The notes under the pieces are model-generated. The model was not told the origin of the DNA. It worked only from the letters and a program-made list of their open reading frames with translations, and ran no database searches. From contig CAVUVW010000013.1 of assembly GCA_963745035.1 (NCBI GenBank), positions 1,728,001 through 1,792,000 of the forward strand: a stretch of DNA of 64,000 bases, given 5' to 3'. Positions 44,420 through 62,749 of the stretch are shown here, piece after piece (within the stretch, counting starts at the first letter, position 1; each line of letters opens with the position of its first letter). A program made the translations under genes and the position numbers. The stretch is from an uncultured delta proteobacterium (GTDB taxonomy: Bacteria; Desulfobacterota; Binatia; UBA9968).

Positions 44420-44420
44420 G

Positions 44421-45191
44421 TCAGTTAGTCTTCTCGAAAATCTTAGCGCGCCATCCCGATTCGCTCGGAGCGAGGCAAAGCAATTCCAATTCGCCCAGCA
44501 ATCCGCTATCGGCGAAGCTAAAGGTGGACTCTTCGCCGACAATCACATGGTCGAGCACCTTCAATCCAAGCGGCCGGCTGGCGGCTATCAAATCCTGAGT
44601 CAGCATCCGATCCGACTCGCTGGGCTCTGCCACGCCGGATGGATGATTGTGCGCAGCGATCAGCGCCGAGGCGTTCACCTGCAACGCCCGCGCGACAATA
44701 TTCCGCAGCGATGGCCTGACAGCGTCCACTGAACCCTGGGCGATGAGCGCGTCGTCCAACAGCGCATTGCGCCGGTTTAGGTAGAGTACTCGGAACTGCT
44801 CCTCTGCCAGACCGCGCAGCCGCTCGCGCAAATATTCTGCCGCCGTCGCCGTGCTCTTCATCACCAAATGTCCACGCTGTGCGGGTATCGAAACACGCCT
44901 TGCAATTTCCATCGCCGCAATTAACTGGGCCGCCTTTGCGCCCTTCAGTCCCTTGATCTCCAACAACGCGATGACCGGAGCTTCCACCATCGTCCGAAGC
45001 GAGCCGAACTCCTTCAACAACTGCCGCGACATCTCAACTGCGTTTGTGCCTTTGTAGCCAACTCGGAGTAATATGGCGAGAAGTTCCGCATCAGAGAGCG
45101 CCTGCGCACCCTTCGACAGAAGCCGCTCTCGAGGCCGGTCCTCTTGCGGCCACGATGCAATACCAAGCTTCTTTGTTTTCGATGCGCGCAT
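44421..45191 (-). CDS. radC: RadC family JAB-domain protein
   Basis: DRPRERLL..GAQALSDAELLAILL, AHNHPSG...PSESD, LDHVIVG. Confidence 0.92.
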   Translation of the reverse strand: MRASKTKKLGIASWPQEDRPRERLLSKGAQALSDAELLAILLRVGYKGTNAVEMSRQLLKEFGSLRTMVEAPVIALLEIKGLKGAKAAQLIAAMEIARRVSIPAQRGHLVMKSTATAAEYLRERLRGLAEEQFRVLYLNRRNALLDDALIAQGSVDAVRPSLRNIVARALQVNASALIAAHNHPSGVAEPSESDRMLTQDLIAASRPLGLKVLDHVIVGEESTFSFADSGLLGELELLCLAPSESGWRAKIFEKTN

Positions 45192-45509: not shown

Positions 45510-45788
45510 GCGAAATGGCGGGTTCAGACGAGAAAGACCTATGGATCAGACTAGGAGACCGGGGAGAGCCGTGTTGTGATCCGTGATCGTGTGCGTGATT
45601 GCGGATCGAAGAATAGAATTGACGTACGACCCCGAGGTAAACGCTACCGCATACGAACCTTTTAATTTTCTGCGGCTGTGTGCAAATTCTTTACACTCCG
45701 TACCGCAATACCGTGATCGTGAACGGAGAAGTGCCGTGAGCGTGGGGAAAAAGGCCGTGTTCGTGGTTGTGGACGCGCTAGAGCAGTT

Positions 45789-46163
45789 CTAGCGTGATCG
45801 TGTTCGTGGTTCGCTTCCCAAGGACTGCGACAGCCGCGAAAGCATCTGAACCACCCGGTCATAGTCGGAGCGTAATTCGTGATACGTCTCTGGCGAAATG
45901 TAATTTAGATCGCGGGCGACAAGCGGCTGATAGCAGACTTCGCCCGCGGAGCCGCGCGCGATACCCACAAATTGGCGATACTCCTTGGTACCGAGCCTCA
46001 TAGCGCCTTCCATAAGGTTCATGCCGACTGAGATTGCGGCTCGCCGCATCTGATCGACTAGGCTATACATTTCCTCTCTCGGGAAGCTTTTCGTAACCGA
46101 ATAAATCTTCAGAGCCAGCTGATGAGCGAGTTTGAAAACATCCAAGTCTTCCACACTGTTCAT
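45789..46163 (-). CDS. Four-helix-bundle protein (23S rRNA IVS/bAvd-like), subfamily A copy 1
   Basis: EDLDVFKLAH...FPREEMYSLVDQMRRAAISV..NLMEG...ARGSAGE. Confidence 0.9.
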   Translation of the reverse strand: MNSVEDLDVFKLAHQLALKIYSVTKSFPREEMYSLVDQMRRAAISVGMNLMEGAMRLGTKEYRQFVGIARGSAGEVCYQPLVARDLNYISPETYHELRSDYDRVVQMLSRLSQSLGSEPRTRSR

Positions 46164-46381
46164 CCCCGTCCCTCCGAGAAGCCACGATCACGAACCACGA
46201 CCACGTTCTCCCCCACCGCCCTCCTGACCACGAGCACGTATCACGAACACGTTGGCACGGCTACTGCGTGCCCGTTCAAAACGTTCAAGCCGTTCAATGG
46301 TTTCACTCCGTTCAAGCCGTTACTCGCTAACGGCTGTTCAACGGTTCAATCGTTCAGAAGTTCAACGTCAGATTCTCGGAC

Positions 46382-46440
46382 GGGAAACTTCCATGTTTCG
46401 AGAATTCTCGAAACGTCGAAATGTGAAGCCAGGCACGAGG
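46382..46440. repeat. Palindromic repeat GGGGAACTTCCACGTTTCGAGAATTCTCGAAACGTCGAAATGTGAAGTCAGGC; about 15 full or half copies in the window
   Basis: Copies at 46382, 47888, 49415, 49801, 51629 (half), 51820, 52035, 52781, 52881 (half), 54703, 56016, 57414, 58355 (half); reverse orientation at 16394 and 24153. Confidence 0.9.
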
Positions 46441-46499
46441 TGGGAGGCAGCAGGCGCGAGCCGGGAACAATACTCGGGAAGGAACCTTGAACTGGACCT

Positions 46500-46754
46500 T
46501 TACCTGTACACTTCCCGCCGATGTCTTACACGAAAAATCCTCACACGCCTGCGCGCATCATCGATATCGTAGACGACTCGATAATCTCCGATTCGGATGC
46601 GCCAATCATTTCGCGAGCCGGTTAACTTGTGGCAACCGGGTGGGCGTGGATTTTCGGCGAGGGCGTTTATGCGGGAAACGATACGATTGAAGATAGTGTG
46701 AGGCAGCGCTCGAAGATCGCGTTCAGCGGTCCGCTCAATTAGAATCTCATACAC
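46500..46754 (-). CDS. RelE/ParE family toxin
   Basis: AERDLRAL, NPRPPGCHKL, WRIRIGDYRVVYDI. Confidence 0.9.
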   Translation of the reverse strand: MYEILIERTAERDLRALPHTIFNRIVSRINALAENPRPPGCHKLTGSRNDWRIRIGDYRVVYDIDDARRRVRIFRVRHRREVYR

Positions 46755-47007
46755 CCGCAGTGTCCTTCAGAAAGTCGGCAAACTTGCGGAATTTGAGCGG
46801 CCTTTTCCTCATTTCCTTGAGCGTCTTGAGATCCTCCGCATCCTCCGCGCGCTCGAGCAACTCGCGATACTCCTCAATACCGAGAATGACGGCGGTCGGC
46901 CTTCCTCTACGCATTACGATTTCGGGGTCCCTTCTTTTTCGCTTTGCTTTCATGGTTTTCACCTTGTCTGTTTGGACGACAATATCATCCCCAAAAAGTC
47001 CCTTCAA
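46747..47007 (-). CDS. Phd/YefM-like antitoxin
   Basis: GRPTAVILGIEEYRELLE; overlaps the toxin start. Confidence 0.75.
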   Translation of the reverse strand: MKGLFGDDIVVQTDKVKTMKAKRKRRDPEIVMRRGRPTAVILGIEEYRELLERAEDAEDLKTLKEMRKRPLKFRKFADFLKDTAGV

Positions 47008-47309
47008 ATGGACGCCGTGACGCGCGACTCGTGAAGCCGAGACGTGATCGTGGTCTGATACCGTGAATCGTGGTCGTGAGTCGGATAATTGCCGTGAGCG
47101 TACCTTCCAAAGGATAAAGGCAAAAGGATAAGGGATAAATCCCGTGAGCGTGGGGAAAAAGGCCGTGTTCGTGGTTGTGGACGCGCTAGAGCAGTCTAGC
47201 GTGATCGTGTTCGTGGTTCGCTTCCCAAGGACTGGGACAGCCGCGAAAGCATCTGAACCACCCGGTCATAGTCAGCGAAAACCGCCGTGAGCGTGATTCG
47301 TGATCGTGT

Positions 47310-47663
47310 CTACCGATTGAGACTCTGCGAGAGCTTGGACAGCATTTGGATGACCCGATCATAGCCCGAGCGCAATTCCTGATACGTTTCGTTAGAGATA
47401 TAATTTAGATCGCGGGCGACAAGCAGCTGATAGCAGACTTCGCCCGCGGAGCCGCGCGCGATACCCACAAATTGGCGATACTCCTTGGTACCGAGTCTCA
47501 TAGCGCCTTCCATAAGGTTCATGCCGACTGAGATTGCCGCTCGCCGCATCTGATCGACTAGGCTATACATTTCCTCTCTCGGGAAGCTTTTCGTAACCGA
47601 ATAAATCTTCAGAGCCAGCTGATGAGCGAGTTTGAAAACATCCAAGTCTTCCACACTGTTCAT
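47310..47663 (-). CDS. Four-helix-bundle protein, subfamily A copy 2
   Basis: Near-identical to 45789..46163 except for the C-terminal ~30 aa. Confidence 0.9.
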   Translation of the reverse strand: MNSVEDLDVFKLAHQLALKIYSVTKSFPREEMYSLVDQMRRAAISVGMNLMEGAMRLGTKEYRQFVGIARGSAGEVCYQLLVARDLNYISNETYQELRSGYDRVIQMLSKLSQSLNR

Positions 47664-48056
47664 CCCCGTCCCTCCGAGAAGCCACGATCACGAACCACGA
47701 CCACGTTCTCCCCCACCCCCTCCTGACCACGAGCACGTATCACGAACACGTTGGCACGGCTACTGCGTGCCCGTTCAAATCGTTCAAACGCTGCGCTCAT
47801 CCGAAACCTGAAACCCGTTCCAATTGTTCCAACGGTTCCATCGCTTCGCTACGTTCCAAACGTTTAAATCCCAAAGACTAAGAGAGAGGGGAACTTCGAC
47901 GTTTCGAGAATTCTCGAAACGTCGAAATGTTAAGTCAGGCACGAACAACAGGCGTGAGGTCGGAAAGAAAGATACGTGTTCGTGATTTCCTTGATCGGGT
48001 GTTCAACAAAGATATTCTGTATTGACACTTTAAATTATCATGATAATCTAAACCGT

Positions 48057-49205
48057 GTGTTTAAGCGATCCTTATCGTTGCCGAAGGCCGGCATGGAGAG
48101 CTTCTTCCTCTGGGGACCGCGACAGACCGGCAAAACCACCCTGCTCAGGGCCGCCTACCCGGACGCCCTGTGGATCGATCTACTCAAGGCGGAGGAGTAC
48201 CGACGCTATCTGCAGAACCCGGAGCTGCTCCGTGCTGAGATCGCAGCGCAGAAATCCGTGCGCCATGTGGTCATCGACGAGGTCCAGAAGGTCCCGCCGC
48301 TCCTCGACGAAGCCCACTGGCTGCATGAAAACCGCGCCGTCCGCTTCGCTCTCTGCGGCTCGAGCGCGCGCAAGGTGAAACGCGGCCACGCCAATCTGTT
48401 GGGCGGACGGGCGGTGCGCTACGAGCTGCACGGCTTGACCGCTGTCGAGATCGGGCGTGAATTCGATCTGGAGCGCATGTTGAACCACGGCTATCTGCCG
48501 TCGATCTACTTGTCCGATCGTCCACAGCGCCTGCTCAATGCCTATGTGGCGGATTATTTGAAAGAAGAAGTCGCCGCGGAAGGGTTGGTTCGAAACCTTC
48601 CCGTATTCTCGGCCTTTCTCAACGCGGCTTCGCTCTCGGATACCGAGCTGGTCAATTTTTCCACCATCGCGCGCGACTGCGGTGTTTCCAGCGTGACGAT
48701 CCGCGGCTATTTCGAGATTCTCGAAGATACACTGTTGGGACGGTGGCTGCCGGCTTACGTCAAGCGTCCGAAACGGCGGGTCATCGCGGCGCCCAAGTTT
48801 TTCTTCGCCGACGTCGGCGTGGTCAACCACCTTGCCAAACGCGGCGAGCTACGGCCGAGATCGGAGCTCTACGGCAAGGCCTTCGAGAACTGGGTCTTTC
48901 ATGAGTTGACCGCGCATAACGCGTACGCCGAAGCCTTTGCCACGCTCGGTTATTGGCGCCTCGCCAGCGGCATCGAAGTCGATTTTATCGTCAATGACAT
49001 GCAGGTGGCGATCGAGGCCAAAGCCGCCGCCAACATTACTACCGATCATCTCAAAGGCCTCCGTTCCCTGGTGCAGGATCATCCGCGCATCAAGCAACGC
49101 CTGATCGTCTGCCTCGAACCCAAGCGCCGCCGCACCGAGGACGGCATTCTCGTCCTTCCCGCGTTGGAGTTTTCTCAGGTGCTCAAGAGCGGCGAGTTGT
49201 TCTAA
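48057..49205 (+). CDS. AAA_14 ATPase with DUF4143 domain
   Basis: GPRQTGKT, IDEVQK, GSSARK, KFFFADVG, EVDFIV....IEAK. Confidence 0.88.
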   Translation: MFKRSLSLPKAGMESFFLWGPRQTGKTTLLRAAYPDALWIDLLKAEEYRRYLQNPELLRAEIAAQKSVRHVVIDEVQKVPPLLDEAHWLHENRAVRFALCGSSARKVKRGHANLLGGRAVRYELHGLTAVEIGREFDLERMLNHGYLPSIYLSDRPQRLLNAYVADYLKEEVAAEGLVRNLPVFSAFLNAASLSDTELVNFSTIARDCGVSSVTIRGYFEILEDTLLGRWLPAYVKRPKRRVIAAPKFFFADVGVVNHLAKRGELRPRSELYGKAFENWVFHELTAHNAYAEAFATLGYWRLASGIEVDFIVNDMQVAIEAKAAANITTDHLKGLRSLVQDHPRIKQRLIVCLEPKRRRTEDGILVLPALEFSQVLKSGELF

Positions 49206-49462
49206 AAAGGATAAGGGATAAAGGCCGTGAGCGTGATTCGTGATCGTGAAAATGCCAGAGACGTGAGCGTGATCGGACAACTAACGCGATCGTGTTCCCA
49301 GCCGGAAAAACGCCGTGATCGTGTCTTGTCCTTCAGTGAGAACGACCGCGCTCGTGCTGGTGGACGTGATTCGTCCCGCTATGTGGAGCGTGATCGAGCT
49401 CAACAGACGCCCGCGGGGAAACTTCCACGTTTCGAGAATTCTCGAAACGTCGAAATGAGGCC

Positions 49463-49763
49463 CTAGCCTAGACGGCTCGTCGAGTTGATGATCTTTTCAA
49501 GTGCCTTCAACAGCCCCCGAGTCTCGCTGCGGTGCTTGAGCCAGTAGCGAACGTTCTTCCCGTCGCTGTCGTATCTCACGATATCGGCGGCGCGCAGCTT
49601 GGCCAGATGTGTGCTGATGGTCTGCACCGAGCGGCCGGCAAGCTTGGCCAGAGCGCTCGGCGTCATCGCGTCCGCCCGCATCGAGCAAAACAACGAGCTG
49701 GTAAATCACCGGATTCCCAAGTAAACGGCAAAGCCGCGATTCGCGATAGTCGGGTTCGTCCAT
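49463..49763 (-). CDS. ArsR/SmtB-family winged-HTH protein, frameshift near 49670
   Basis: LLGNPVIYQLVVLL followed by MTPSALAKLAGRSVQTISTHLAKLRAADIV in the adjacent frame. Confidence 0.75.
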
Positions 49764-50077
49764 CGCCAGCCATCTACGGCAAAACCGCCTCCGCTGTCAA
49801 TTCCACGTTTCGAGAATTCCCGAAACGTCGAAATGTGAAGTCAGGTATGAGGCAGGAGGCGGCAGGCAATAGTCAAAAAACTGGACCTCGGCCGTGTGCA
49901 GCTTTTCTTCGACCAGAAAGCCTATCCTCCTCGGTTCCGAGCACAGCGAGAAAGGACGTGTCGTGATCGTGCGGGACCAGCCGTTCGGGAGGGAGGACGA
50001 CGCTAATGGTGATCTGGGAACCTGCGGACAACTATCGCATCGTCGTAGGTAAAAAACGCCGAGTTTAGAAGCCAGCT

Positions 50078-50290
50078 CTATTTGCCGGCGGTTAACTCTG
50101 CTTCAAAAGGCCGCTCCTTGCGAAAACGGCTAACACCGAGAATGCTGAACCCGACTACTTGTCCATGTTCGTCGACTCGCTCCATCAACGCGTCGTGCGC
50201 AGTTTCGCGCATGAACCCCGGGGCATCGCTGAACCGTACCTCCAAAAAATCCCCTTCCGGATCGAACCAAACTTTCAGTTTTTCGGCCAT
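50078..50290 (-). CDS. DUF2283-family putative antitoxin
   Basis: VWFDPEGDFLEV...VDEHGQVVGFSILG. Confidence 0.75.
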   Translation of the reverse strand: MAEKLKVWFDPEGDFLEVRFSDAPGFMRETAHDALMERVDEHGQVVGFSILGVSRFRKERPFEAELTAGK

Positions 50291-50586
50291 AGGATTTCTC
50301 CTGCTTTAACCGTATCCGTGATATATGCTGTAATCACGAAAGCGTCGTCCGGTAGATACTTTACCACTACACACAACCATTTCCCACCGACTTGGGTTTG
50401 CCTGTAAAACTCGTAGAAAAGCTTTACGTCGTCATCGGAGCGCGATCGCCGCACCTCGCTCGGTGTTTGCAATACTCGCTCAAGCTCATCCGCCATTACC
50501 GCCATTTCTACATGTTCCAAGATATGCGCGAGTCGCTCGTCAGTCAGCCGAACAGAAGTGCCAAAGCAATCTCGGATCACTTTCAT
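50275..50586 (-). CDS. Putative RNase toxin (BECR/DUF4258-like) paired with DUF2283
   Basis: LTDERLAHILEH...KWLCVVVK....AFVITAY. Confidence 0.65.
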   Translation of the reverse strand: MKVIRDCFGTSVRLTDERLAHILEHVEMAVMADELERVLQTPSEVRRSRSDDDVKLFYEFYRQTQVGGKWLCVVVKYLPDDAFVITAYITDTVKAGEILWPKN

Positions 50587-50706
50587 AGACGGAAGATACG
50601 GCAGTGTGCCATGCGACGCAATAAAGTCGAGTGTGAAGGCCCATAGTTTTGAACTGGCCCGACGTGGCCGACAGAAGACCCGTAACTATGTCGTCGAAAT
50701 GAGAAA

Positions 50707-50967
50707 CTACTTCCCCAAACCCAGGCGCCGACGCAGTTCCCTGGCCGAGATGGCGCCTTCCTTTTTTACACGGCCTCTGGAAGTCTCTATGATCTTGAGA
50801 AACTTGCGGTTGGTGCTCAGCGCTAGAGTCTCTTCATCCGCGTTCCGTATCGGAATAACGGCCGCGAATGGTTTTCCCGCCTTGTAGACGACGACCGGAG
50901 CTTTTCTTGCTTTTGTGGCGTATTCGGAAAGGGGTCCTGACGCCTTTTTGAACTCTATTTTTGTCAT
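50707..50967 (-). CDS. Phd/YefM-like antitoxin
   Basis: ASGPLSEYA....PVVVYKAGKPFAAV. Confidence 0.7.
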   Translation of the reverse strand: MTKIEFKKASGPLSEYATKARKAPVVVYKAGKPFAAVIPIRNADEETLALSTNRKFLKIIETSRGRVKKEGAISARELRRRLGLGK

Positions 50968-51314
50968 AGCTTTATTATTTCGCCGCCGATCCGTACGCGA
51001 TCTCTCTCTTTTACTCCGATTGCCAGAACGGTAACTGTCGGCCGGGGTTCGTCGCTGACTTCATAATACACTCTGAGATCGCCAATGCGAAGTTCCCAAG
51101 GAGCCACTGGATTCAGTCTCATCGGCTTTCTATTTCGGGTCTCCACGGTCGGCTGATTGGCCAGCTGCCGGTCCACAGCATCGACTACGCTTCGTTGCTG
51201 TCGAGTAGCAAGCCGCCGGAGATGGTCCTCTGCTTCCGGAGAATATTCAATGACGTAGGCCAAGCTATTGTCCTTGCGCCTTTTGGTGTCGCGTGATTTC
51301 GTCCGTAAAAACAA
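50964..51314 (-). CDS. RelE/ParE family toxin (start probably TTG near 51263)
   Basis: IEYSPEAEDHL...WELRIGDLRVYYEV. Confidence 0.8.
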   Translation of the reverse strand: MFLRTKSRDTKRRKDNSLAYVIEYSPEAEDHLRRLATRQQRSVVDAVDRQLANQPTVETRNRKPMRLNPVAPWELRIGDLRVYYEVSDEPRPTVTVLAIGVKERDRVRIGGEIIKL

Positions 51315-52255
51315 TCAAGGCGTTGGTCGGATCGGATGACCGCGACAAAGTTCTTCGCAATTTAATGGATTGGACGGGTTTTGGGCAAGTGGGTTTGCAA
51401 AACGTGGGGCCGGAGTCGTGGAGCAACAGGCGTGAGGTGCGAAAGAAAGATGCCTGCGCGTGGTTCGTGATCGTGTCCGAGCCCGGGTCCGTTCAAGGCA
51501 TTCAAAGCGAACCCGGACGGGGCCTCCTTTAGTCGGACAGGGTAGCCCCGTTCCAGCCGTTCAACCGCTTCGCTCCGTTGAAAACGTTGCAGAGCAATGC
51601 GGTTCGAAGGTGCAAGGTAAGACAAGACGGGAAACTTCCACGTTTTGTTAAGGATAAAGGCAGAAGGATAAAGGATGAGGCGATAAAAACCGTGAGCGTG
51701 GCGGAAAAGGCCGTGTTCGTGGATCGTGGGCGCGCTCGGACCAGTTGCTAAGCGGTTCAGTGGCCGACCGTTACTGTTAAAGACAGAGAACTCATACGTC
51801 GGAAAACGGCGTTGATCAGACTTCCACCCTTCGAGAATTCTCGAAACGTCGAAATGTGACAGCCACGGCACGAGGTGGGAGGCAGCAGGCAATAGTCAGA
51901 AGAGGAACAACTGGAACTCGGGCCGTACGCGGCTCTTCTTCGACCAGAAAGCCTGTCTTTCCTTTCTTTGCCTCCGGCGGCGCCATTGAGCGGGCAAATC
52001 GCATCGATCTACGGGCTCGGATCGAATGCTTTGAGGGGGAATTGCATGTTTTGAGAATTCTCAAAACGTCAAAGGGTCAATCCACCTTTGACGATGCGTC
52101 TATGACTCTCTCCAGCGTTTTGAGAAGCCCTTTCATTTCTCCTTTATGCTTGAGCCAGTCATTTTTAAGGCTAAAGGCGAAAGGATAAAGGATAAGCGGC
52201 TCTAAAAATGATAATGCCAAAAGTATAAAAGGATAAACACGACCTGCCGCCCGAA

Positions 52256-52621
52256 TTACCGCTTTTGACTTTGCGCTTTGGCTTTTATATTCCGAACAAT
52301 GCTTACAAAAATTCCTTTCAGCTCTCCCGTCTCTTTCATTATTGCAGCTAATCTTTCGCTAGCGACAAATCCAGAATCGGCGAGTAATTCCAACCAGTAT
52401 TCGCTTTCTTCCAGCTCCTGTAAACATCCTTCGATTTTGCTGATAAAGTCGGGGTTGGATTTGGCTCGCGACGCCTCGCGATACTGCGCACCGACCGAGG
52501 TGGCGGATCGCAACAGCTGTCGCCCCATGATCTGTGTTTCCGTTTTTTTCGGCAATTCGGCATAAAGCCGGATCACGGAAAGCGCGTAGTCCTTCGTTCT
52601 GCCCTTGAGATCGCTCTTCAT
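52256..52621 (-). CDS. Four-helix-bundle protein, subfamily B copy 1
   Basis: DLKGRTKDYAL...[25 protein letters not shown]....[12 protein letters not shown]. Confidence 0.9.
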   Translation of the reverse strand: MKSDLKGRTKDYALSVIRLYAELPKKTETQIMGRQLLRSATSVGAQYREASRAKSNPDFISKIEGCLQELEESEYWLELLADSGFVASERLAAIMKETGELKGIFVSIVRNIKAKAQSQKR

Positions 52622-53077
52622 AAAAGGATAAGGCCCTCATCCTTTATCCTTTCGCCCTTATCCTTTTCAAATGCTGATACACGATCGGATTGCCGAGCAA
52701 GCGACAGAGCCGCGACTCCCGATAGCGCTTCTCGTCCATGGCCGGCGATCTAATCCCCACCCCATTCCCCTGTCAAGACGCACGTTTTGAGAATTCTCAA
52801 AAGGTCAAAATGGGAAGTCAGGCAAGCGGCGACAGTAGGAAGCGCCGGTTCAATGTTCAAGAGTTCAAGGTCAGATTCGGAGGGGAACTTCCACGTCGGA
52901 AGCTCGAACAAAGGCCGCGCATGATTTCTATATTCACTCGGATCGCGCGTTCACTATCGAGCGGCGTCGAATTGTCGAAACGCTGGAAGGACTTTTTGAT
53001 TGCTGCTCGGAGATACCGTCTTAGGGCGAGGAGGGGAGCATGAAGACTCCCCTCCTGCTGTTATTACGGACGGGCGA

Positions 53078-53497
53078 TTACTTCTTTTCTTTGGTCGTCG
53101 GTTCTTTGCTCATGGGTTCCGTCTTCTCTTTCTTCGTTTCCGTGCCCATGGCCGTCGTTTTGCCGACTCCGAGCTTCCCGGCTGTCTGGTTATCCAATTG
53201 TCCGGTCGCCTTCAGGCCGCTCGCCTGTTGGAATTCTTTCAGCGCCGCCCGGGTTTTGGGGCCCATTCTGCCGTCGATCGGCCCGGGATCGTTGCCCTTG
53301 GCCTTCAAAGCCTCTTGAACCTCTCTGTAGTCTGTCCTGCCGGTCGTCATCTTTCCCATCTCCGGCTTCTTGTCCATTTCCCCCATCTTTTCCGCTTTAG
53401 CCGGCGGCGCTTGCTTTTCCTCGGCCGCTCTCGCGGATACACCCAAGGTCAACAAAAGCGCGCTAGCCAATACGGTTCTACCAATTGCAGTAAACAT
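53078..53497 (-). CDS. Secreted peptidoglycan-binding domain protein
   Basis: VQEALKAKGNDPGPIDGRMGPKTRAALKEFQ. Confidence 0.85.
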   Translation of the reverse strand: MFTAIGRTVLASALLLTLGVSARAAEEKQAPPAKAEKMGEMDKKPEMGKMTTGRTDYREVQEALKAKGNDPGPIDGRMGPKTRAALKEFQQASGLKATGQLDNQTAGKLGVGKTTAMGTETKKEKTEPMSKEPTTKEKK

Positions 53498-53583
53498 AGA
53501 TTCGTCCTCCTTTTACCTGCGGTCCAATCTAATGATCCGCGGCTGAGTTGGTTGTCTAATAGTGGACCGTGTTGAAAAGAAAT

Positions 53584-53620
53584 TTAGACCTGAGGCGCCG
53601 ATTCGGCGCCTCAGGTCTAA
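53584..53620 (-). terminator. Strong hairpin, probable intrinsic terminator
   Basis: 17-bp perfect stem ttagacctgaggcgccg-att-cggcgcctcaggtctaa; U-rich tail on the minus strand. Confidence 0.75.
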
Positions 53621-53643
53621 TTAGGCTCTAGGAAATCTCGCGT

Positions 53644-54201
53644 CTAACTGGGATTGACGGCGAGCTGGGAAATCTTCAACGCGACGCCAAGCGGCAAGGG
53701 ATTATCGCCGGTGCTCAGAGCCGTGCCCAATCTTTCGATCTCCCACGACGAAACCTTTTCAGCGGCCGGCGCTTCGGTTACGGCGGCCTGCAACTTATCG
53801 GCCTGGGGCAGTTTGATCAGGTATTTGACGTTGTTCCCGTCGCTGAGTGTCACCGAGAGAACCATCTGTTTGCCTTCTTCGGTCGCCAAGGTTTGCAACC
53901 CGGCAATGCGACTTGAAAGGCTGGTCTTGCTCACGGTATCGGCGTAGAGCCAGATGAAGGCGCCGACAAAGGAAGCCATCACCAGCCAGCCGTACTGGCC
54001 GACCCGTTTTTGGCGCTTTATCGACCGGCTTCTCTGTTGATCGAAGAATTTGCGGTAGGATTCTTTTTCCGCCGTCACTTTCTTGACTGGATCCTGATCC
54101 GTGGAACTCGGCGGTTGATTGAAACCGAGGTCCAAGCTGTTCAGTATCATGCCCAGGATCACCAACCCTAGCGGAATGGCGATTAAAAATAGAGGATTCA
54201 T
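53644..54201 (-). CDS. Hypothetical membrane protein
   Basis: Two hydrophobic segments; AAGGAG RBS. Confidence 0.6.
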   Translation of the reverse strand: MNPLFLIAIPLGLVILGMILNSLDLGFNQPPSSTDQDPVKKVTAEKESYRKFFDQQRSRSIKRQKRVGQYGWLVMASFVGAFIWLYADTVSKTSLSSRIAGLQTLATEEGKQMVLSVTLSDGNNVKYLIKLPQADKLQAAVTEAPAAEKVSSWEIERLGTALSTGDNPLPLGVALKISQLAVNPS

Positions 54202-54753
54202 AATTCTCCTTTTGCAGGCTTTTTATAGCCTTTGGATATTGGAAGAGGAGTCTGATCCGGGCATACGTTCGTTTGTCGAACCCGAACGGGAAGTCATTGC
54301 CACCGTTGGTTATGTCGTGTCGACGGGTCTTTACCTCTTGCGCGCCATTACAGCTCTCGCGTTTAGCATAAGATAACCATCCGCGGCGGGAATAAATGTC
54401 TAATAGTGGACAAGTCGAAAAGAAATAAAAAGTAGGCGTGAGGGTGAGCAACCGATGAAGCGAACCCGTTCAAATCGTTCAAGCCGTTCAACCGCTACGC
54501 TCCGTTCAAGACGTAACGGACTAATGCCGGTTCAACGGTTCAATCGTTCAAAAGTTCAACGTCGATCAGGCAATAGGCAACGGGCAACAGTAAAGAGAAG
54601 GCCTTCAACCGGTCCCCGGAACCTGCGCCTGAGTCCAATCAAAGGGTTCAAACCGTTCCGGGTTAGCACCCGCGCTCAAGGTCCGACGTTCCAATTCTCC
54701 CAGGGGGAACTTCCACGTTTCGAGAATTCTCGAAACGTCGAAATGACAACGGG

Positions 54754-55290
54754 CTAGCGGCCGCCGTAGGCGGCGCCTTTTTCTTCTACTAGAAATCCGA
54801 TTTTTCTCTTCTTCGGCTGCGGCGGCGTCATGAGTTGGCGGATCGCGTCAAACACAACCTTGAACTGAGCGTCGTATTTTTTCTCCAGGTCAGCCAACTT
54901 CCGGGCGAGCTGGCTATTCGACGCCAGCATCTGCCGGAGCCGAACGAAGGCGCGCATAATCTCGATATTCACCTGTATTGCACGTCGACTGTTCAGCACT
55001 GACGAAAGCATCGCGACGCCTTGCTCGGTGAAGGCATACGGCGCGTATCGCCTACCTCCGCGACCCTTGTTTGAGGTCGCAAATTGCGACCTCAAAGAGG
55101 CGACTTCTTCTGCGGTCAGCTGAAACATGAAATCTTCTGGAAACCGGGCTCGGTTACGCCTGACCTGCTCGTTGAGCCGCTTGGTCGTCACACCATATAG
55201 GGCAGCGAGATGAACATCGATCAAGACCTTATGACCACGAATCAGCAAAATCGATCGTTCGATGCTCTTAGTCGGAGATGTTGTTGCCAT
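54754..55290 (-). CDS. ORF6N domain DNA-binding protein
   Basis: [41 protein letters not shown]. Confidence 0.9.
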
Positions 55291-55435
55291 TTGGACTCAC
55301 TCCATTTGACAAGTCCGGTGAAACGTCAGCGGATCTTATGGGATGGCCGGGTTTGGGACAAGAGGGACGCGAGGGCAGAAGAGACGTGGTCGTGGGGTTT
55401 ACTTAAGGATAAAGGCAAAGGGATAAAGGATAAGT

Positions 55436-55801
55436 TTAACATTTCGAAATTCTTGACTTGGCTTTGGTGTTTACGACGATGCTAACGAATATACCTTCAG
55501 TTCACCGGTTTCTTTTTTAACGGCGGCCAATCTTTCTTCTGGAACAAATCCGGAATCGCCGAGCAATTCCAACCAGTATTCGCTCTCTTCTAATTCCTGC
55601 AATGAGCCTTCGATCTTGCTGATAAAATCGGCGTTGGACTTGGCTCGTGACGCTTCGCGATACTGCGCGCCGACCGAGGTGCCGGATCGTAAGAGCTGTC
55701 GTCCCATGATCTGCGCCTCTGTTCTCTTTCGGCAATTCGGCAAAAAGCCGGATGACCGAAAGTGCATAATCCTTCGTCCTGATTTTCAAGGCGCTATTCA
55801 T
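55436..55801 (-). CDS. Four-helix-bundle protein, subfamily B copy 2 (two compensating frameshifts)
   Basis: Paralogue of 52256..52621 with the same 366-bp span. Confidence 0.8.
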
Positions 55802-56066
55802 TATCGCCGTTTGAGCATCCCTTATCCTTTATAATTTCTCCTTTAAAATGGTTCGCCATCGCCGTCGGGGCTTATCCTTTATCCTTCAGCCTTTATCCTT
55901 TCAACTTGTGCCGTGTTCGTGTTCGTGTCGGATAGCTACCGTGAACGTGATTCGAGTCGATGGCGGCTCTGGCAAAACAGCCGTTCAAAACGTCCGAGGA
56001 GTAAAACCAGGACAAGGGAACTTCCACGTTTCGGGAATTCTCAAACGAAACGTCGAAAGGTCGCGC

Positions 56067-56297
56067 TCACGCCGCGGTGTACTGACGGACTTCGACCTGA
56101 ATTCCTAACTGGGCGGCTTCAGCCGCGGATCTGAGAAGGCTGGCTGTAATGTTTTCATCAACGTATTCTTCACCGCAATTTGCGCAGACCCGAGCTGGAA
56201 CACCCTTGAAGACCAAAGTGGCTCCGTCTTTGTCCAACGTCACGGTCGCCGTCCCAGCCTTTGTTTCGCCCTTCTTGCAAATCACGCATTTCATCAA
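56067..56297 (-). CDS. YgiT/MqsA-type zinc-finger antitoxin
   Basis: MKCVICKKG...VPARVCANCGEEY. Confidence 0.85.
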   Translation of the reverse strand: MMKCVICKKGETKAGTATVTLDKDGATLVFKGVPARVCANCGEEYVDENITASLLRSAAEAAQLGIQVEVRQYTAA

Positions 56298-56578
56298 GTC
56301 TTTCTCCTTTTAAAATCCGGTTCCCATTCCTCCGGATCCGGCTCATAGACGGTAATGACGATATTTTCCTGATCATCCAGATTATCAGCGAGGACGACGT
56401 GAATCGGTCGGCGGCCGTTCCATCCGAGAACTAGACGACTCGGATATGGCGTGTCATCAGGATAATCTTCCACCGTTTCTCCCGTAACAATAACATGTCG
56501 AACTTCGGTCTCCGTTATAGTGCGCTGATACATACGTTGAATGGCGTGGACTCGAAAGACCAATCGGTTAAATACCAC
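56294..56578 (-). CDS. DUF4258 putative toxin
   Basis: HAIQRM.QR.I, EDYPDD.PYPS.L, IVITVYEPD. Confidence 0.85.
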   Translation of the reverse strand: MVFNRLVFRVHAIQRMYQRTITETEVRHVIVTGETVEDYPDDTPYPSRLVLGWNGRRPIHVVLADNLDDQENIVITVYEPDPEEWEPDFKRRKT

Positions 56579-56828
56579 GCAAGAACCTCACCTGTTTCCA
56601 TGATTCGTGAGCAGACCGTGACATAGGAGCCCACGGTCTGGATTCGAGTTCATCAAGCCACGTCTCGCGAGCAACGCGAAGGCGGGATGATTTCACCCCA
56701 TAACGATATTCGCCTAACACGATAACGGGCAGATGGATATCGGTGGCTGATTGCTGAAGACAATTGAGCAAGCGTTGGTTTGCGTCGGCAAAATCGGAAA
56801 CAGCGTTGGTATCGAGGATCACTTCCAC
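56568..56828 (-). pseudogene. VapC/PIN toxin, C-terminally truncated
   Basis: ILDTNAVS...IVLGEY; only 86 aa and lacks the distal acidic motif. Confidence 0.7.
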
Positions 56829-57100
56829 TCCCGGGGATCGATCCTCTCAAATTCCTCATCAATTATTTTTTGGATGCTGCGCGTGTCCGTACGCATGTCC
56901 TCCGATTTAGCGAAAGCTCCATAAAGTTTCATCCATCGAGGCTCGCCCTTCTCTAGCTCTTCGTCGCGACCAATTTTGTCCTCAATGGCTTCAGCAACGA
57001 GTTGTTCTAAGCTAAGGCCCTTCGCGGCCGCCAGGGTTTTGGCACGTTTCAGCGTCTTTTCGGATATCTCGACTGTTGTCTTCATAGATCTTACTCCCAC
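56819..57100 (-). CDS. VapB-like RHH antitoxin
   Basis: MKTTVEISEKTLKRAK..AA..GLSLEQLVAEAI. Confidence 0.75.
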   Translation of the reverse strand: MGVRSMKTTVEISEKTLKRAKTLAAAKGLSLEQLVAEAIEDKIGRDEELEKGEPRWMKLYGAFAKSEDMRTDTRSIQKIIDEEFERIDPREWK

Positions 57101-57524
57101 ATGACTGAGTCTACTGGATTCGGCGGGTTTCGGGCAAGAGCGTTCTTAAAGGATAAGGGCAAACGGATAAAGGATAAACCGAGAGAAGGGAAAGGGGACC
57201 GGAAAAAATAAGCTCTGAGACCAATCTCAAAGTTTAGTTTTCGCAATCCTTGATTTCGCCTTCGTGTTCCTGACGATGGCGACGAAGATTCCTTTTAGTT
57301 CACCGGTTTCTTTTTTAATCGTGCTCAATTTTTCTTGTGGAACGAATCCGGAATCGCCGAGCAGTTCGTAGACCGGCTTAACGGGTTCAAGAGTTCAAAG
57401 GCGGATTCTCGGAGGGGAAACTTGCACGTTTCGGGAATTCTCGAAACGTGGAAATGTGAAGTCAGGCACGAGGCGTAAGGCAACAGGCAACAGTACCGAA
57501 ACTGCGAACTTGAGGGTAGCCCTC

Positions 57525-57715
57525 CTATTTTGGATCTGGGATACCGAGTTGGCGGCAAATCTTGCGTGCTAGAAAATTGGCGATCTCCGTATGTCTTGGA
57601 ACGGTTGTAACGCGGCGCGGATCGGCAAGATTGACGTACTTGCTGTGCTTTGCCCCTTCGTCGGCGAGAACGCATCCGAACCGCTCAAGTGTCGGATGAA
57701 CTCGCGTCGTTTCAC
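57525..57715 (-). CDS. HicA-family toxin, one-base frameshift near 57686 (not in ORF track)
   Basis: MKRREFIRHL / RFGCVLADEGAKHSKY...TTVPRHTEI...ARKICRQLGI. Confidence 0.75.
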
Positions 57716-57916
57716 TTACACCTCGAGTTGCTCGATCACGATTTTGTTTTTGGGTAGCTTAGATAGATCCAGTGGCTCGCGTATCATCCGCACCGCATCG
57801 ATGAGATTCTCACGTGCCTCTTCCAGCGTCACCCCCTGTGTCAACGCACCGGGAACATCATCGGTCCATGCCACCCACCATTTACCGTCTTGCACAAAAC
57901 TCGCCTGAATCTTCAT
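57716..57916 (-). CDS. HicB-family antitoxin (short)
   Basis: WWVAW..DVPGALTQGVTLEEARENLIDA. Confidence 0.85.
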   Translation of the reverse strand: MKIQASFVQDGKWWVAWTDDVPGALTQGVTLEEARENLIDAVRMIREPLDLSKLPKNKIVIEQLEV

Positions 57917-58450
57917 AAAAGCAATCTCCTATCGGCACTAATTTTACGCGAAACAGCAGGGCGATGCCAATCGTCGGAGGGAGAATGTTACAAACGAAAA
58001 GCGGTTCCAAGGGTTCCACTCGTTTCCAGACGTTCCAATCGTTCCGGAGCAACGCACTTCAAGAGTTCAAGGTCGAGAATTGCCCGGTCATAACGCAAGA
58101 AAACAGCCGTGATCGTGATTCGTGATCGTGTCTACCGGTTAAGAGTCTGCGACAGCCTGGAGAGCATCTTTCAAAGGATAAAGGCAAACGGATAAAGGAT
58201 GAGGGATAAAAACCGTGAGCGTGGGGGGAAAGGCCGTGTTCGTGGATCGTGGGCGCGCTGGAGCAGTCTAAGCGGTTCGTGGCCGACCGTTACTGTTAAA
58301 GACAGAGAACTCATGCGCGGAAAACGGCGTTGATCAGTGCCAGCCCTTCCCGTCATTCTCGAAACGTCGAAATGTGAAGTCAGACACGAGGTGGGAGGCA
58401 GCAGGCGCGAGCCAGGAACAATACTCGGGAAGGAACCTTGAACTGGACCT

Positions 58451-58705
58451 TTACCTGTAGACTTCCCGCCGATGTCTTACACGAAAAATTCTCACACGCC
58501 TGCGCGCATCATCGATATCGTAGACGACTCGATAATCTCCGATTCGGAGGCGCCAATCATTTCGCGAGCCGGTTAACTTGTGGCAACCGGGTGGGCGTGG
58601 ATTTTCGGCGAGGGCGTTTATGCGGGAAACGATACGATTGAAGATAGTGTGAGGCAGCGCTCGAAGATCGCGTTCAGCAATCCGCTCAATTAGAATCTCA
58701 TACAC
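58451..58705 (-). CDS. RelE/ParE toxin, duplicate of 46500..46754
   Basis: Two amino-acid differences. Confidence 0.9.
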   Translation of the reverse strand: MYEILIERIAERDLRALPHTIFNRIVSRINALAENPRPPGCHKLTGSRNDWRLRIGDYRVVYDIDDARRRVRIFRVRHRREVYR

Positions 58706-58958
58706 CCGCAGTGTCCTTCACAAAGTCGGCAAACTTGCGAAATTTGAGCGGCCTTTTCCTCATTTCCTTGAGCGTCTTGAGGTCCTCCGCATCCTCCGCG
58801 CGCTCGAGCAACTCGCGATACTCCTCAATACCGAGAATGACGGCGGTCGGCCTTCCTCTACGCATTACGATTTCGGGGTCCCTTCTTTTTCGCCTTGCTT
58901 TCATGGTTTTCACCTTGTCTGTTTGGACGACAATATCATCCCCAAAAAGTCCCTTCAA
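58698..58958 (-). CDS. Antitoxin, duplicate of 46747..47007
   Basis: Two amino-acid differences. Confidence 0.75.
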   Translation of the reverse strand: MKGLFGDDIVVQTDKVKTMKARRKRRDPEIVMRRGRPTAVILGIEEYRELLERAEDAEDLKTLKEMRKRPLKFRKFADFVKDTAGV

Positions 58959-59191
58959 ATGGACGCCGTGACGCGCGACTCGAGACGTTTACTTAAGGAT
59001 AAAGGCAAAGGGATAAAGGATAAAAACAAAAAGACGTGAGCGTGGGGAAAGGCCGTGTTCGTGATCGAGGATGTGCTAGAGGAGCAAGCGATGATAGAGC
59101 GCGAAAAGGATAAAGGACTACGACAACCTGAGAGCAAGGGCAAAGGGACCAAGGGCAAAGGGATAAAGGCTCTGAGAGCCAATCTCAAAGT

Positions 59192-61598
59192 TTAGTTTTC
59201 GCAATCCTTGATTTCGCCTTCGGTGTTCCTGACGATGGCGACGAAGATTCCTTTTAGTTCACCGGTTTCTTTTTTAATCGTGCTCAATTTTTCTTGTGGA
59301 ACGAATCCGGAATCGCCGAGCAATTCCAACCAGTACTCGCTCTCTTCTAATTCCTGCAATGAGCCTTCGATCTTGCTGATGAAATCGGGTAGAGTAGAGA
59401 ACAGGCGCAGCATTATTTAGGTTGACCCTTGGCCGTATCCGTCGTTTCCAACTTCGTGCCCGTTTAGGATCTCCGTGAAACACAGTCCTGTTCCCCCTCA
59501 TCAAACCGTACTTGCAGTTCTCCCGCATACGGCTTTCCGATCATCTTCACTTCAAGGCATTGCGAGTTGACCGATATCGGGCATGTACTGTGGGATCGTG
59601 ACCATTCCAAACTCTTTATAGAGCCGGGACGCTGGCCACTGGCTCGATCGAAACCCTTTGATCTGTCGTCGCCCCCGCAGGTACTTGAGCATTCGCCGCT
59701 CCAGAAAATATCGCTGCCGGGTAAACACCGCGTGCTGTTATGCAGGTGGAAGTAATTTACCCACCCCGCGACATACCGATTGACCCGATCCATCACCTCT
59801 TGTTGGGGAAGGCAATGGGTCCAGCGCGCCGTCAGCGCTCGCACTTCGTCTCGAAAGCGCCGCTCGGACTTTTGCGCGATGGTTGCGTCAACGTGATCAT
59901 CCGACTGCTCTTGTAGACTGATTCTGCGAGTAAAAGCTAAATCCCAGAAAATCAAAGCTCCCATACGAGCATCGACCATCCGAGTCTTGTTCGTCGTTCA
60001 ACTTTAGCTCCATTCGCTCGATTATCTGCCTGCACTTTCTTGCACCGTCGCTTCGATTCTGCCGCGCATCAGGATGACAAAGTCATCGGCATATCGCACC
60101 AGCTGCGCTGTCGAGCCCGTGCTACGACAATACGATCGGAACATCCGGTCAAATAGATGCAGGTAAATATTGGCAAGTAGACGGGGAGATCACTCCGCCT
60201 TGAGGCGTGCCCCGCTCGGGTCGGTTTGACTGCGCCGCTTCCCTTCCTCGTCTTCTTCCACCACTGCCGCACTGAGCCACTGCTTGATCCAATGCAAAAT
60301 GTGCCGGTCGTTGATTCGTGTGGCAATCAGCTTCATGAACTTATCGTGGGCAATGCGTGTCGAAGTACTGCTGAAGGTCAGCGTCTAACACATACGGATG
60401 ACGCACGGTAGAGCGCCTACCCGGATAGCACCGACAGCTTGATGAGCGTCTCTTCTTCGGACGAAATCCAAAACTGCAATCCTCGAAGTCCGCCTCAAAG
60501 ATCGGCTCAATGACGATCTTCACCGCCATCTGTGCTACTCGGTCTCCGAATGGTCGGTATCCCAACGGCCTCTTTCTTCCATCGGCCTTCGGGAATAAAG
60601 ACCCGGCGTACGGCTTGCGCTCGGTAGGTCTTTTCTTTTAGTTCCTGTTGAAGCGTCAATAGAAACTTCGCTTCGCCTTCGCCAGTCTCGATAGACTGAA
60701 AAGTTACCCCGTCGATCCCGGGGCTCCGCCATTGGCTCGAACCAAGCGATAGGCGTGCTGCGATAATATCCTCACGCCATACTTTGTCCGGCAATAGATA
60801 AAAGCGAAACTTGGGCTCTCTCTTGACCTTGAGATACAGTTTGCGCTGGAGGTCTCGAATCTTCTCAGGTGTTTGTAGCCTCACGGCAATCACCTTCTCC
60901 TTTCCTCGTTAACAAACTTAATGAAAGCAGGGCGCCTTCCCTCCATCCGGCATTGCCCGATTTCTTAGGTACTACTCGCCCCTCCGACTTCTCGCTTGCC
61001 TGAACTCGGTTTTCGTTTGCCCTTATACCGAGTCCATCGCAGCCATCACCCGCGACAAACGAGATCTCCTGCGTTACCCAGCAACAGCTTCTCTCACATC
61101 CCGTCCCGACGACCCCGGAGAGTTCATCTGATGCTTCTTCGGTTAGCTTCACAGATGACTGCGGCCTTCCCCATCTGACAACAGGGTCGGCACTCTCGAT
61201 TTGCAAGTGACGAGGCTCTGTATGGGTTCCTGATTAGTACGGTCTGTGAGTTTGCGATTCTCCGCTGCTGTTCTCTGATCATTTGCCTCCTTTCTCTTTG
61301 ATTCGGAGTTTTCTCGATCCGCTTAGTCTCAAGAGTCGCCTCTCAAAACCGGTTCTTCGCTAACGGGGTGAACCGTTAATTCCCCGCACCGGACTTTAAC
61401 CGGTTAGCTGCTCTGCTTCCGCGGCGCACGTCAGACTTGCCCCGCGATGCCTCGCGATACTGCGCGCCGACCGAGGTGCCGGATCGCAAGAGCTGACGCC
61501 CCATAACCTGCGCTTCTGTTCTTTTCGGTAATTCGGCAAAGAGCCGGATGACCGAAAGTGCATACTCTTTGGTTCTGACTCTTCAGATCGCGATTCAT
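59192..61598 (-). CDS. Four-helix-bundle protein, subfamily B copy 3, split by a group II intron (exons 61598-61430 and 59388-59192)
   Basis: 5' exon ends ...[10 protein letters not shown](K)SD; 3' exon resumes [19 protein letters not shown]. Confidence 0.85.
59389..61429 (-). mobile_element. Group II intron
   Basis: 5' GTGCG at 61429; domain V AGCCGTATGCGGGAGAACTGCAAGTACGGTT (~59503-59535); domain VI ending CTCTAC; internal RT. Confidence 0.92.
59552..60893 (-). pseudogene. Group II intron reverse transcriptase/maturase, multiply frameshifted
   Basis: [37 protein letters not shown] and GWVNYF spread across several frames. Confidence 0.85.
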
Positions 61599-61720
61599 AA
61601 AGGATAGGGCAAAGGGATAAAGGATAAGTTTACCGCAAATCAGCGCGTCACAAGGCTAAGCGTGAGCGGATTTTATCCTTTATCCTTCATCCCTTATCCT
61701 TTCAAGGAAGACCAGGTTTT

Positions 61721-62737: not shown

Positions 62738-62749
62738 ACCTTTCTCCCC

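Follow-up and report, generated by a model that had tools for sequence, protein, structure and literature searches.

What organizes a long run of co-oriented toxin–antitoxin (TA) and other small genes whose modules end in one recurring palindrome, when no integrase is seen beside them? The question is raised by positions 45700–61700 of a 64,000-nt stretch of DNA (hereafter the window; G000:C13:1728001–1792000), which belongs to a 7.43-Mb metagenome-assembled genome (MAG) in 28 contigs from a soil bacterium of the class Binatia. Throughout, G000 denotes this source genome, other G numbers the genomes of relatives, C numbers contigs, L numbers fetched loci and X numbers public metagenome runs. 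A preliminary description had proposed that the locus is an integron-like platform for gene capture and shuffling that uses a different kind of boundary element. Pattern mapping confirms that the palindrome, which we call P, lies where it had been placed and that it is the modular boundary element of a real array. What had been missed is that P is apparently the target of the ArsR-type protein encoded in the array, so that recombination would be exploiting an element whose role is regulatory or insulating. From sequence comparison we put at roughly one half the probability that a lineage-specific ArsR/SmtB-type protein has its cognate DNA site in P, reused as a module boundary, and that P is not an integron recombination site.

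P is a polar palindrome of 32–45 nt centered on GAATTC, with the gene-sense consensus CTCATTTCGACGTTTCGAGAATTCTCGAAACGTGGAAGTTCCCC; it owes its polarity to a conserved G.G mismatch and to asymmetric, conserved flanks (CTCAT...GTTCCCC). The preliminary description had counted about 13 copies in 45700–61700; we count 12, of which 10 are full, one carries a 4-nt insertion and one is a half-site. A genome scan with a 24-mer at up to four mismatches gave 15 matches in 7.43 Mb, 14 of them on C13, far above chance. The 16-mer core at up to two mismatches gave 21 matches, 17 with P arms, and 15 of these 17 fall within a single 93-kb stretch (C13:1,700,948–1,793,296). P is confined to one locus and is thus not a genome-wide repetitive extragenic palindromic (REP) element. 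As a control, the reversed P pattern had no match in 41 and in 31 genomes.

One orientation is common to 13 copies, the first at window position 46397 and the last at 65296, just past the window end; four upstream copies are reversed. Solitary copies in the opposite orientation lie at 16389–16420 and 24156–24187 (both plus strand); the first overlaps the stop of a plus-strand two-open-reading-frame (two-ORF) module (15857–16389), at an intergenic site whose content varies between species. At this reversed copy (16397), the one checked in this respect, P again comes after the end of its plus-strand ORF, so its polarity with respect to the gene is unchanged. Across 76 copies from G000 and its relatives, an ORF of at least 55 aa ends no more than 80 nt upstream of P in the sense orientation in 43, vs 12 of 76 in the other orientation; the distances from ORF end to P peak at ~8 nt and ~60 nt, and 14 of the 76 copies lie 3–11 nt past a stop codon. 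No P lies inside any Pfam-supported ORF.

The individual minus-strand copies illustrate this placement. The copy at 46389–46420 is of class CGAG, and that at 47895–47926 is a perfect 32-nt palindrome. Two copies bracket the ArsR unit described below: the downstream one (49423–49454) lies 5–8 nt past the ArsR-like stop codon, and the upstream one (49801–49832) abuts the TTGACA −35-like hexamer of that gene. The left arm is degenerate in the copy at 51822–51853, which lies within a 240-nt repeat (51650–51890). Two copies belong to class TGAG, a variant at 52042–52073 and one at 52778–52809 that adjoins the truncated start of an ArsR-like gene (MDEKRYRE..., read directly from the sequence) as well as a TTGACA hexamer. 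Farther on come copies at 54711–54742 (11 nt past the ORF6N stop), 56022–56057 (with the 4-nt insertion, in its right arm, 9 nt past the MqsA-like stop) and 57422–57453, and a half-site at 58355–58370 that retains the right arm only. The closeness to stop codons (49454/49463, 54742/54754 and 56057/56067) and the abutment on TTGACA (TGTCAA at 49796 and 52776, which is TTGACA on the minus strand) bear out what had been reported.

The module best conserved between arrays runs from P(49816) through an ArsR/SmtB-type winged-helix gene (49463–49763, minus strand) to P(49438), a P-to-P match of ~410 nt that recurs in G015, G018, G043 and G045. The ArsR gene of the preliminary description is present in frameshifted form, its N-terminal 30 aa and the remainder lying in different frames; the gene is intact at 99–110 aa in relatives, as in the 110-aa ORF of G018. 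A model of the family (20 members; predicted local distance difference test score, pLDDT, 92.5) has the ArsR/SmtB fold, and Foldseek retrieves NolR–DNA, CzrA, SmtB, CadC and ArsR at probability 1.0 with template modeling (TM) scores of 0.71–0.81, and the ArsR-fold centromere protein AspA at ranks 27 and 45. The ArsR-like protein scores 35.1 bits with Pfam HTH_20 (cut-off 27), and the truncated window copy falls below the cut-off of NCBIfam HTH_metalloreg (36.6 vs 55). In the family alignment (A2) a single Cys (C13) is invariant, as is H78, and E81 is nearly so; Cys13 hints at a possible role in redox or metal sensing.

Palindromes accompany this gene far beyond the window. In the genus, 12 of 14 ArsR-like genes have at least one flanking palindrome and eight of 14 have palindromes with perfect arms of at least 8 nt on both sides, and P-type palindromes flank ArsR-like genes in six other genera of the family too. 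Among 47 full-length homologs from species representatives, palindromes are found on both sides in 28, on one side in 16 and on neither in three. Divergent paralogs, down to 42% identity, have P-type palindromes on both sides in other genomes and genera and in unrelated contexts. The upstream palindrome stands either 6–14 nt or 36–43 nt before the ArsR-like start codon; the 6–14 nt distance is that of the divergent clade, and in the canonical one a TTGACA hexamer directly adjoins the palindrome. In six units from unrelated contexts the homology begins ~6 nt before the upstream P and stops ~8 nt after the downstream one, giving a unit of ~400 nt, and no conserved neighbor gene was found around the ArsR units. 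Selection is required to keep 26–32 nt of intergenic DNA perfectly symmetric on either side of a gene whose identity has fallen to ~45%.

The protein and its sites also change together. The inner 6-mer is identical in the two flanking palindromes in 27 of 31 units, and distinct recognition helices go with distinct half-sites: QTVS[G/T]H with TTCGAGAA, SxISIH with TTTGAGAA, QRVST[V/L] with TTCCGGAA, xRVSNV with TTTCGGAA, PRTSNI with TTTCGCAA and SRVSHV with TTGCGCA. In the near-identical pair L057 (TTTTCGG) and L062 (TTTCCGG) a single helix residue differs, and so does a single base, symmetrically in both flanking sites. When palindrome classes are mapped on the protein tree, they form clusters (13 changes vs 22.2 in shuffles, with none of 200 shuffles as low), and P copies near a resident ArsR-like gene are mostly of the same class; in G264, for example, CGGG sites surround the CGGG-type genes and CGAG sites the CGAG-type gene. 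The arms of P themselves covary, with 53 double-change cells vs 17.4 in shuffles (none of 500 as high).

The gene occurs in 11 of 25 genomes of one bacterial family and in none of 275 genomes from other families of the class, and the seven well-assembled genomes (at most 90 contigs) with at least three P all carry it (G000, as a pseudogene, G015, G018, G043, G044, G045 and G264). The family is abundant in soil metagenomes; its metagenomic members fall into 432 clusters at 90% identity, for the most part from very short contigs, and bear only the generic name "ArsR family regulator".

We also note two arrangements seen around these units in relatives. A module for a NERD-domain nuclease lies immediately upstream of the ArsR-type unit or beside P in L047:7786–8610, L044:7742–8011, L108:497–1309 and L048:3172–3927. 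In G264:C2 (L086 and L087) P copies of two classes (TGAx, then CGAG or CGGG) stand in pairs exactly 63 nt apart, at combined positions 8374/8437, 12375/12438 and 28908/28971, which suggests composite boundaries read by two paralogous proteins.

These observations can be drawn together in a model in which we infer binding and insulation from the anatomy, polarity and distribution of P and from its linkage and co-variation with the gene. The P–gene–P unit would be an autoregulated gene, with one P at its promoter or start and the second after its stop; in some lineages the same site, in one polarity, would have come to close every co-oriented TA or small-gene module of variable islands. The ArsR-type protein would bind each boundary as a repressor or roadblock, and the sense transcript would end in a stable hairpin at P. 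Bound protein and hairpin together might insulate each module from its neighbors and bring all of them under the control of a single regulator, possibly a redox- or metal-responsive one. Because the boundaries are near-identical 45-nt repeats prone to cruciform formation, we propose that they serve as sites of module duplication, loss, exchange and shuffling. In G000 itself the frameshift in the regulator means that the array may be unregulated or decaying.

Several points weigh against P being, in essence, the operator of this protein. The G000 copies are near-perfect although the G000 regulator gene is frameshifted. A cognate gene at E ≤ 1e-8 was not found in G012 (~33 well-kept P, with only two divergent paralogs), G005 (13; an unpublished genome used only for counts of P, IntI and RAYT-like matches and for this missing ArsR-like match), G023 (five) or G009 (four). 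Fragmented MAGs such as these readily lose a 400-nt unit that lies between repeats, yet the count stands against dependence on the protein. Most P copies follow stop codons and do not overlie recognizable promoters, and promoter-like sites are not enriched (nine vs 7.6 expected). Physical linkage between gene and palindromes means that part of their co-divergence follows from shared descent; the rows behind the arm covariation were pre-selected for at least three of four symmetric inner bases, and palindromes can stay symmetric by templated repair without selection. P also has no T run, and a terminator scan calls no P copy as a terminator. Finally, the asymmetric flanks, and half-sites broken at the exact center of P, are unexplained by operator function alone.

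Could P be nothing but a structural 3′ hairpin, an RNA stabilizer or atypical terminator that travels with its module, the ArsR linkage being incidental? The placement past stop codons, the covarying arms and the RNA fold all fit such a hairpin: on the sense strand P folds at −20.6 kcal/mol (z −5.1) vs −16.5 kcal/mol antisense, the sense form being stronger because of a U-G wobble at pair 8/41 that is conserved in 58 of 84 rows. The same terminator scan, however, finds a canonical terminator at 53584–53620, and P, without a U tract, is therefore not a canonical terminator, though the organism has canonical ones. A hairpin alone leaves unexplained why the sequence is identical across unrelated modules and genera, why a copy stands 6–14 nt before ArsR-like starts, and why helix and half-site match. 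We consider this explanation distinctly unlikely.

If P is also a boundary at which modules are exchanged, traces should be visible among relatives, and here the array is clearly variable. Of the 24 other genomes of the genus, 14 have the strict P pattern, vs none of 16 genomes from other genera of the order; a degenerate pattern is found in 24 of 31 genus genomes. G264, which represents another genus in this family, carries at least 13 P in 22 kb. The arrays of G018, G012, G015, G045, G043 and G264 consist of co-oriented TA-type modules with P after each (DUF433/DUF5615, PIN/RHH, Gp49/HTH, HepT/MNT, HicAB, ParE/Phd, DUF4258/MqsA, NERD and ORF6N) and a few metabolic genes between them. Gene order is not fixed: relatives' arrays carry other TA modules, and modules of the window recur elsewhere at 72–92% identity in other orders and contexts, as in G045:C60, where the window order is scrambled.

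Some of this variation maps to P itself. Among 572 homology ends between arrays, 64 (11%) fall within 25 nt of P, where 300 randomizations place 2.0% on average and 4.5% at most, and ~85% lie away from it. In G000 the 98% duplicate 46404–47031/58355–58982 starts exactly at the center of P (that of the copy at 46389–46420), leaving the half-site at 58355. Five half-sites with one arm replaced break within ~4 nt of the center (window 58355, C13:1796711, L046:9276, L048:7033 and L049:6241). At the intergenic site downstream of HpaB (window 15322–16851), G000 has a two-ORF module together with P, G043 another segment, of 2.4 kb, G011 a P–ArsR–P unit and G004 nothing.

Other comparisons are less tidy. 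An X2 metagenome contig joins 51665 directly to 58190, a strain-level indel of 6.5 kb within the array, and the joint falls in the 240-nt direct repeat that contains P, not in the center of P. The flanks of 110 P copies, compared with G000 and all fetched loci for filled and empty pairs, gave only filled sites or redundant loci, and no clean empty site, solo-P footprint or circle junction was found in these assembled contigs. Around the ArsR unit, G004 and G044 differ by replacement of the entire intergenic segment without a clean footprint. For the integron-like reading of the preliminary description, the enrichment of homology ends counts in favor, and the large majority of ends away from P and the one strain-level indel count against. 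The public runs were examined as Logan contigs, in which contig ends at P are repeat-induced assembly breaks, and joints with a short side below 30 nt (54729→58108, 54561→58024 and 47856→50077) were left out. Because contigs from other metagenomes bridge several P in the same arrangement, the array is not an assembly mosaic, at least at 51949–53616 (X2) and 57385–58200 (X1). In an RNA run (X20), which may contain DNA, coverage of the array is partial and of low depth, and we make no claim of expression from it.

A further repeat runs through the locus. Tandem arrays of a 9-mer, (GTTCAAnnC)n, make up 419 doublets genome-wide, for example at window 46270–46365 and 54466–54510 and at L014:6111–6155 and 13253–13279; they also lie directly upstream of the IntI gene on C6 and around the variable segment downstream of HpaB, and the copy at 54468–54509 is the junction to many unrelated sequences in metagenome contigs. 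As a general part of the boundary the 9-mer was rejected: a strict doublet lies within 160 nt downstream of only seven of 89 P copies and upstream of none, and the 9-mers are genome-wide.

The events at the center of P would fit a site-specific recombination site, and with its 11-6-11 layout P resembles dif, lox and FRT, exchange then taking place in the central GAATTC. Module plus P would be a cassette, the recombinase (Xer-type, IntI or unknown) would be encoded elsewhere, the ArsR-like protein would be accessory or site-marking, as ArgR is at cer, and the locus would be a functional analog of an integron. The co-oriented arrays with one P per module end, the reuse of modules in different orders, the centrally broken half-sites, the duplicate that starts at the center of P, the different cassettes downstream of HpaB and the exact bounding of the ArsR unit by P in unrelated contexts all suit it. 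The small share of homology ends near P, the indel in the flanking repeat and the lack of any filled and empty pair or solo-P footprint among the loci compared do not; a symmetric central spacer gives no directionality, and breaks at the center also fit cruciform or hairpin cleavage. The broken half-sites and asymmetric flanks keep a site-specific system with an ArsR-type accessory protein a live rival, and we regard it as possible but doubtful.

The search for a recombinase speaks against this proposal. No tyrosine or serine recombinase was found at the locus: PF00589 has no match on C13, and the sole PF00239 match stands at the start of C13, 1.7 Mb away. None is conserved beside the arrays of G015, G018 and G264. 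Xer-like genes are present on C6 and C14, and the 11-6-11 geometry of P is compatible with a Xer-type layout. The preliminary description saw no attC or IntI, which is correct at the locus; the genome does encode an IntI, on contig C6 (L014, G000:C6:42134–43036; 445 bits vs a cut-off of 265), with no obvious array beside it. IntI does not track P: G006 and G014 have IntI and 0 and 1 P, G018 has 23 P and no IntI, and G019 and G003 have P without IntI, many of the compared genomes being incomplete MAGs. In G014 (L095, G014:C15) two IntI genes are separated by 17 kb that hold only two distinct attC-like candidates, and the IntI genes of the genus seem mostly cassette-poor.

That the locus is an ordinary integron remnant (a cluster of attC sites lacking an integron-integrase, CALIN), with P a divergent attC served by the C6 IntI, has this gene in its favor, as well as the fact that TA-rich, co-oriented arrays are typical of chromosomal integrons. 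attC sites are 57–141 nt long, with the layout R″(RYYYAAC)-L″...L′-R′(GTTRRRY), an unpaired spacer and extrahelical bases. P, in contrast, is a near-perfect palindrome of 32–45 nt, with one mismatch in its 32-nt core and no R boxes, unpaired spacer or extrahelical (bulged) bases. A crude attC scan gave no candidate in the window vs the two between the G014 IntI genes; its power is low, as three of four IntI-flanking control regions were also blank. With IntI and P failing to co-occur, we find this origin extremely improbable. What stands of the integron-like platform is its modularity, co-orientation, variability and homology ends at P; dedicated capture machinery, attC anatomy and a link to IntI do not.

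A third kind of enzyme lies closer by. The window encodes, at 33015–33902 (minus strand, ~12 kb from the array), a Y1 (HUH) transposase of 295 aa with a C-terminal extension that scores above the NCBIfam cut-off for REP-associated tyrosine transposase (RAYT; 84.8 vs 80 bits), and P, a polar imperfect hairpin with a conserved mismatch, could be a REP- or PATE-like element mobilized by such enzymes as single-stranded DNA. The family is multi-copy, matched four times in G000 and as many as 26 times in G015, and some of its members are found close to P, at 115 nt on G002:C700 and at 666 nt on G024:C169. Its distribution led us to reject the link: RAYT-like genes occur class-wide, in 96 of 301 genomes of the class, including 18 of 21 genomes of a family without the ArsR-like gene, which is found only in family f1 (P was sought within the order); G142 has ArsR and P with no RAYT-like match; P is confined to its locus and not dispersed; and no RAYT-like gene is flanked by P. 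Mobilization of P by these enzymes is thus very unlikely. AGGCAAC-type heptamer repeats precede the window's RAYT-like gene.

This leaves the cognate site of the ArsR-type protein, reused as a boundary, as the reading that we favor, and we infer that exchange at these boundaries would proceed by general recombination, palindrome breakage or a recombinase acting in trans, rather than by an integron integrase. A bolder version, which we think rather unlikely, is that P and the ArsR-type protein form a previously unknown cassette system confined to one Binatia family, an analog of the integron in which modules, each with one P, would be inserted, excised and reshuffled by recombination at the palindrome center. 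A host recombinase, or the processing of cruciforms, would then act on sites marked or licensed by ArsR-type proteins of orthogonal specificity classes.

The modules that P separates are as follows; gene identities were drawn from Pfam profiles and in part from NCBIfam. As had been stated, the gene set of 45700–61700 is co-oriented on the minus strand, the sole plus-strand gene being an AAA_14 + DUF4143 ATPase (47976–49205). Seven TA pairs had been listed, of which the three RelE, the DUF2283 and the YgiT/DUF4258 pairs are supported by the profiles. The ParE/RelE-family toxin is present three times, twice with Phd: a toxin (46500–46754) and Phd antitoxin (46747–47007) at 46500–47007, its 98% duplicate at 58451–58958, and a ParE-family toxin (50964–51314) with a Phd-like ORF (50707–50967) at 50707–51314, a module that P directly follows in G015 and G012. 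A DUF4258-like gene (50275–50586) is paired with DUF2283 (50078–50290) at 50078–50586, in a module found in other contexts in eight genomes, and DUF4258 (56294–56578) with an MqsA/YgiT-like gene (56067–56297) at 56067–56578. The VapBC pair has no PIN match, and of the HicBA pair only a weak DUF1902 (HicB-like) match survives (57716–57916; Pfam E 5e-4), HicA being undetected in Pfam. The array further holds an ORF6N-domain protein (54754–55290; Pfam 118.6 bits), a peptidoglycan-binding-domain protein (53078–53497) and a multi-copy gene of unknown family (53644–54451), all on the minus strand. The last is followed by the canonical terminator named above and is 85% identical to C5:94975–95857; it has a further paralog on C17 (77%) and homologs at 66–86% in most genus genomes, some of which adjoin P directly (G009:C605, G012:C24 and G012:C277).

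Four-helix-bundle genes (23S_rRNA_IVP; the Avd/23S-intervening-sequence protein family) had been counted as five; we find four intact and two broken, all on the minus strand. They lie at 45789–46163 (Pfam 120.8 bits, NCBIfam TIGR02436 107 bits; flanked by CGTGATCGTG-type inverted repeats), 47310–47663 (a 94% duplicate of 45825–46288), 52256–52621 and 55471–55767, and one is split into halves (59192–59413 and 61434–61598) by a ~2-kb group II intron (59389–61430, minus strand) with degenerate reverse transcriptase/maturase ORFs. The intron-less allele, 59388 joined to 61429, is present in contigs of three independent metagenome studies, and copies of the intron at 80–84% identity occur in G045 and G015. 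At 45722–46290, 47130–47790 and elsewhere the four-helix genes are enclosed by inverted repeats of the CGTGATCGTG/CACGATCACG type, which resemble the stems of rRNA intervening sequences; the genes have been duplicated as units (92–96% identity), and more of them lie past the window (C13:1794–1797 kb). Their association with P as a general trait was rejected as genome-specific, with a four-helix gene within 450 nt after P in seven of 71 copies in the loci examined.

The surroundings are mixed. From 61721 to 64000 and beyond lie three tandem NMT1-type substrate-binding-protein paralogs (75% identical pairs), between P(57437) and P(65303); being inside the P-bearing region, they are ordinary genes embedded in the array, like PFOR/DHODH in G264 and MoCoBD/Fer2 in G018. 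Directly upstream of the array (35947–45191) are defense- or mobile-element-like genes, namely a 1104-aa AAA_22 + PRTase-CE protein, an IS3-family transposase pair (40050–41200), RadC and a 726-aa superfamily 1 (SF1) helicase with an RNase_H_2-like N-terminus.

Should the proposal hold, TA and defense-type cassette arrays would be organized here around the site of a transcription factor instead of that of an integrase, and one small regulator would insulate or control dozens of addiction modules. With at least six helix variants, each matched by a half-site, this tiny ArsR-fold protein also provides a recognition code in natural series. It further becomes testable whether variable islands can arise with no dedicated recombinase, through repeated palindromes that are bound by protein and serve as hot spots of recombination. 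To our knowledge no array organized around such a protein site has been described; our literature searches, which covered titles and the beginnings of abstracts, turned up no Binatia integrons and, among the entries listed, no description of such arrays.

Comparison with known systems is informative in judging what is new. Sedentary chromosomal integrons and CALINs share with this locus long, TA-rich arrays of small co-oriented modules, each followed by an imperfect palindrome homogeneous within the lineage, and array content that varies between relatives; here, however, there is no adjacent integrase, P lacks R/L boxes and extrahelical bases and does not co-occur with IntI, it brackets and co-varies with a winged-helix DNA-binding gene, and many modules are multi-gene, some being ordinary metabolic genes. 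In the pdif modules of Acinetobacter plasmids, XerC/D sites flank TA and resistance modules, so that, as with P, short 11-6-11-type sites delimit TA and other small modules that are reshuffled between replicons with no dedicated recombinase nearby; pdif sites alternate in orientation and are recognizable XerC/XerD sites, whereas P is in direct orientation with a symmetric spacer. REP/REPIN elements and their RAYTs offer extragenic imperfect palindromes after genes, and a RAYT-like family is present here, but P is clustered at few loci (17 copies), does not flank RAYT genes and is far more narrowly distributed. KorB with its OB sites on IncP plasmids and AspA of pNOB8 provide a small helix-turn-helix protein with many identical palindromic sites over accessory genes; both belong to plasmids, where they are connected with partition or the control of transfer, whereas P sites are chromosomal, polar and at the 3′ ends of modules. 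The reading that we favor has a counterpart in the ArsR/SmtB autorepressors (SmtB, CzrA, CadC and NolR), which have the same fold, a length of ~100 aa and a palindrome at their own promoter or start. The family described here has one invariant Cys, with no canonical metal-site motif of the α3N CXC or α5 kind noted (no search was aimed at one), and no conserved target gene; it differs from them further in the second identical site after the gene, in the dozens of copies at module boundaries, and in its confinement to one bacterial family in which many specificity classes have arisen.

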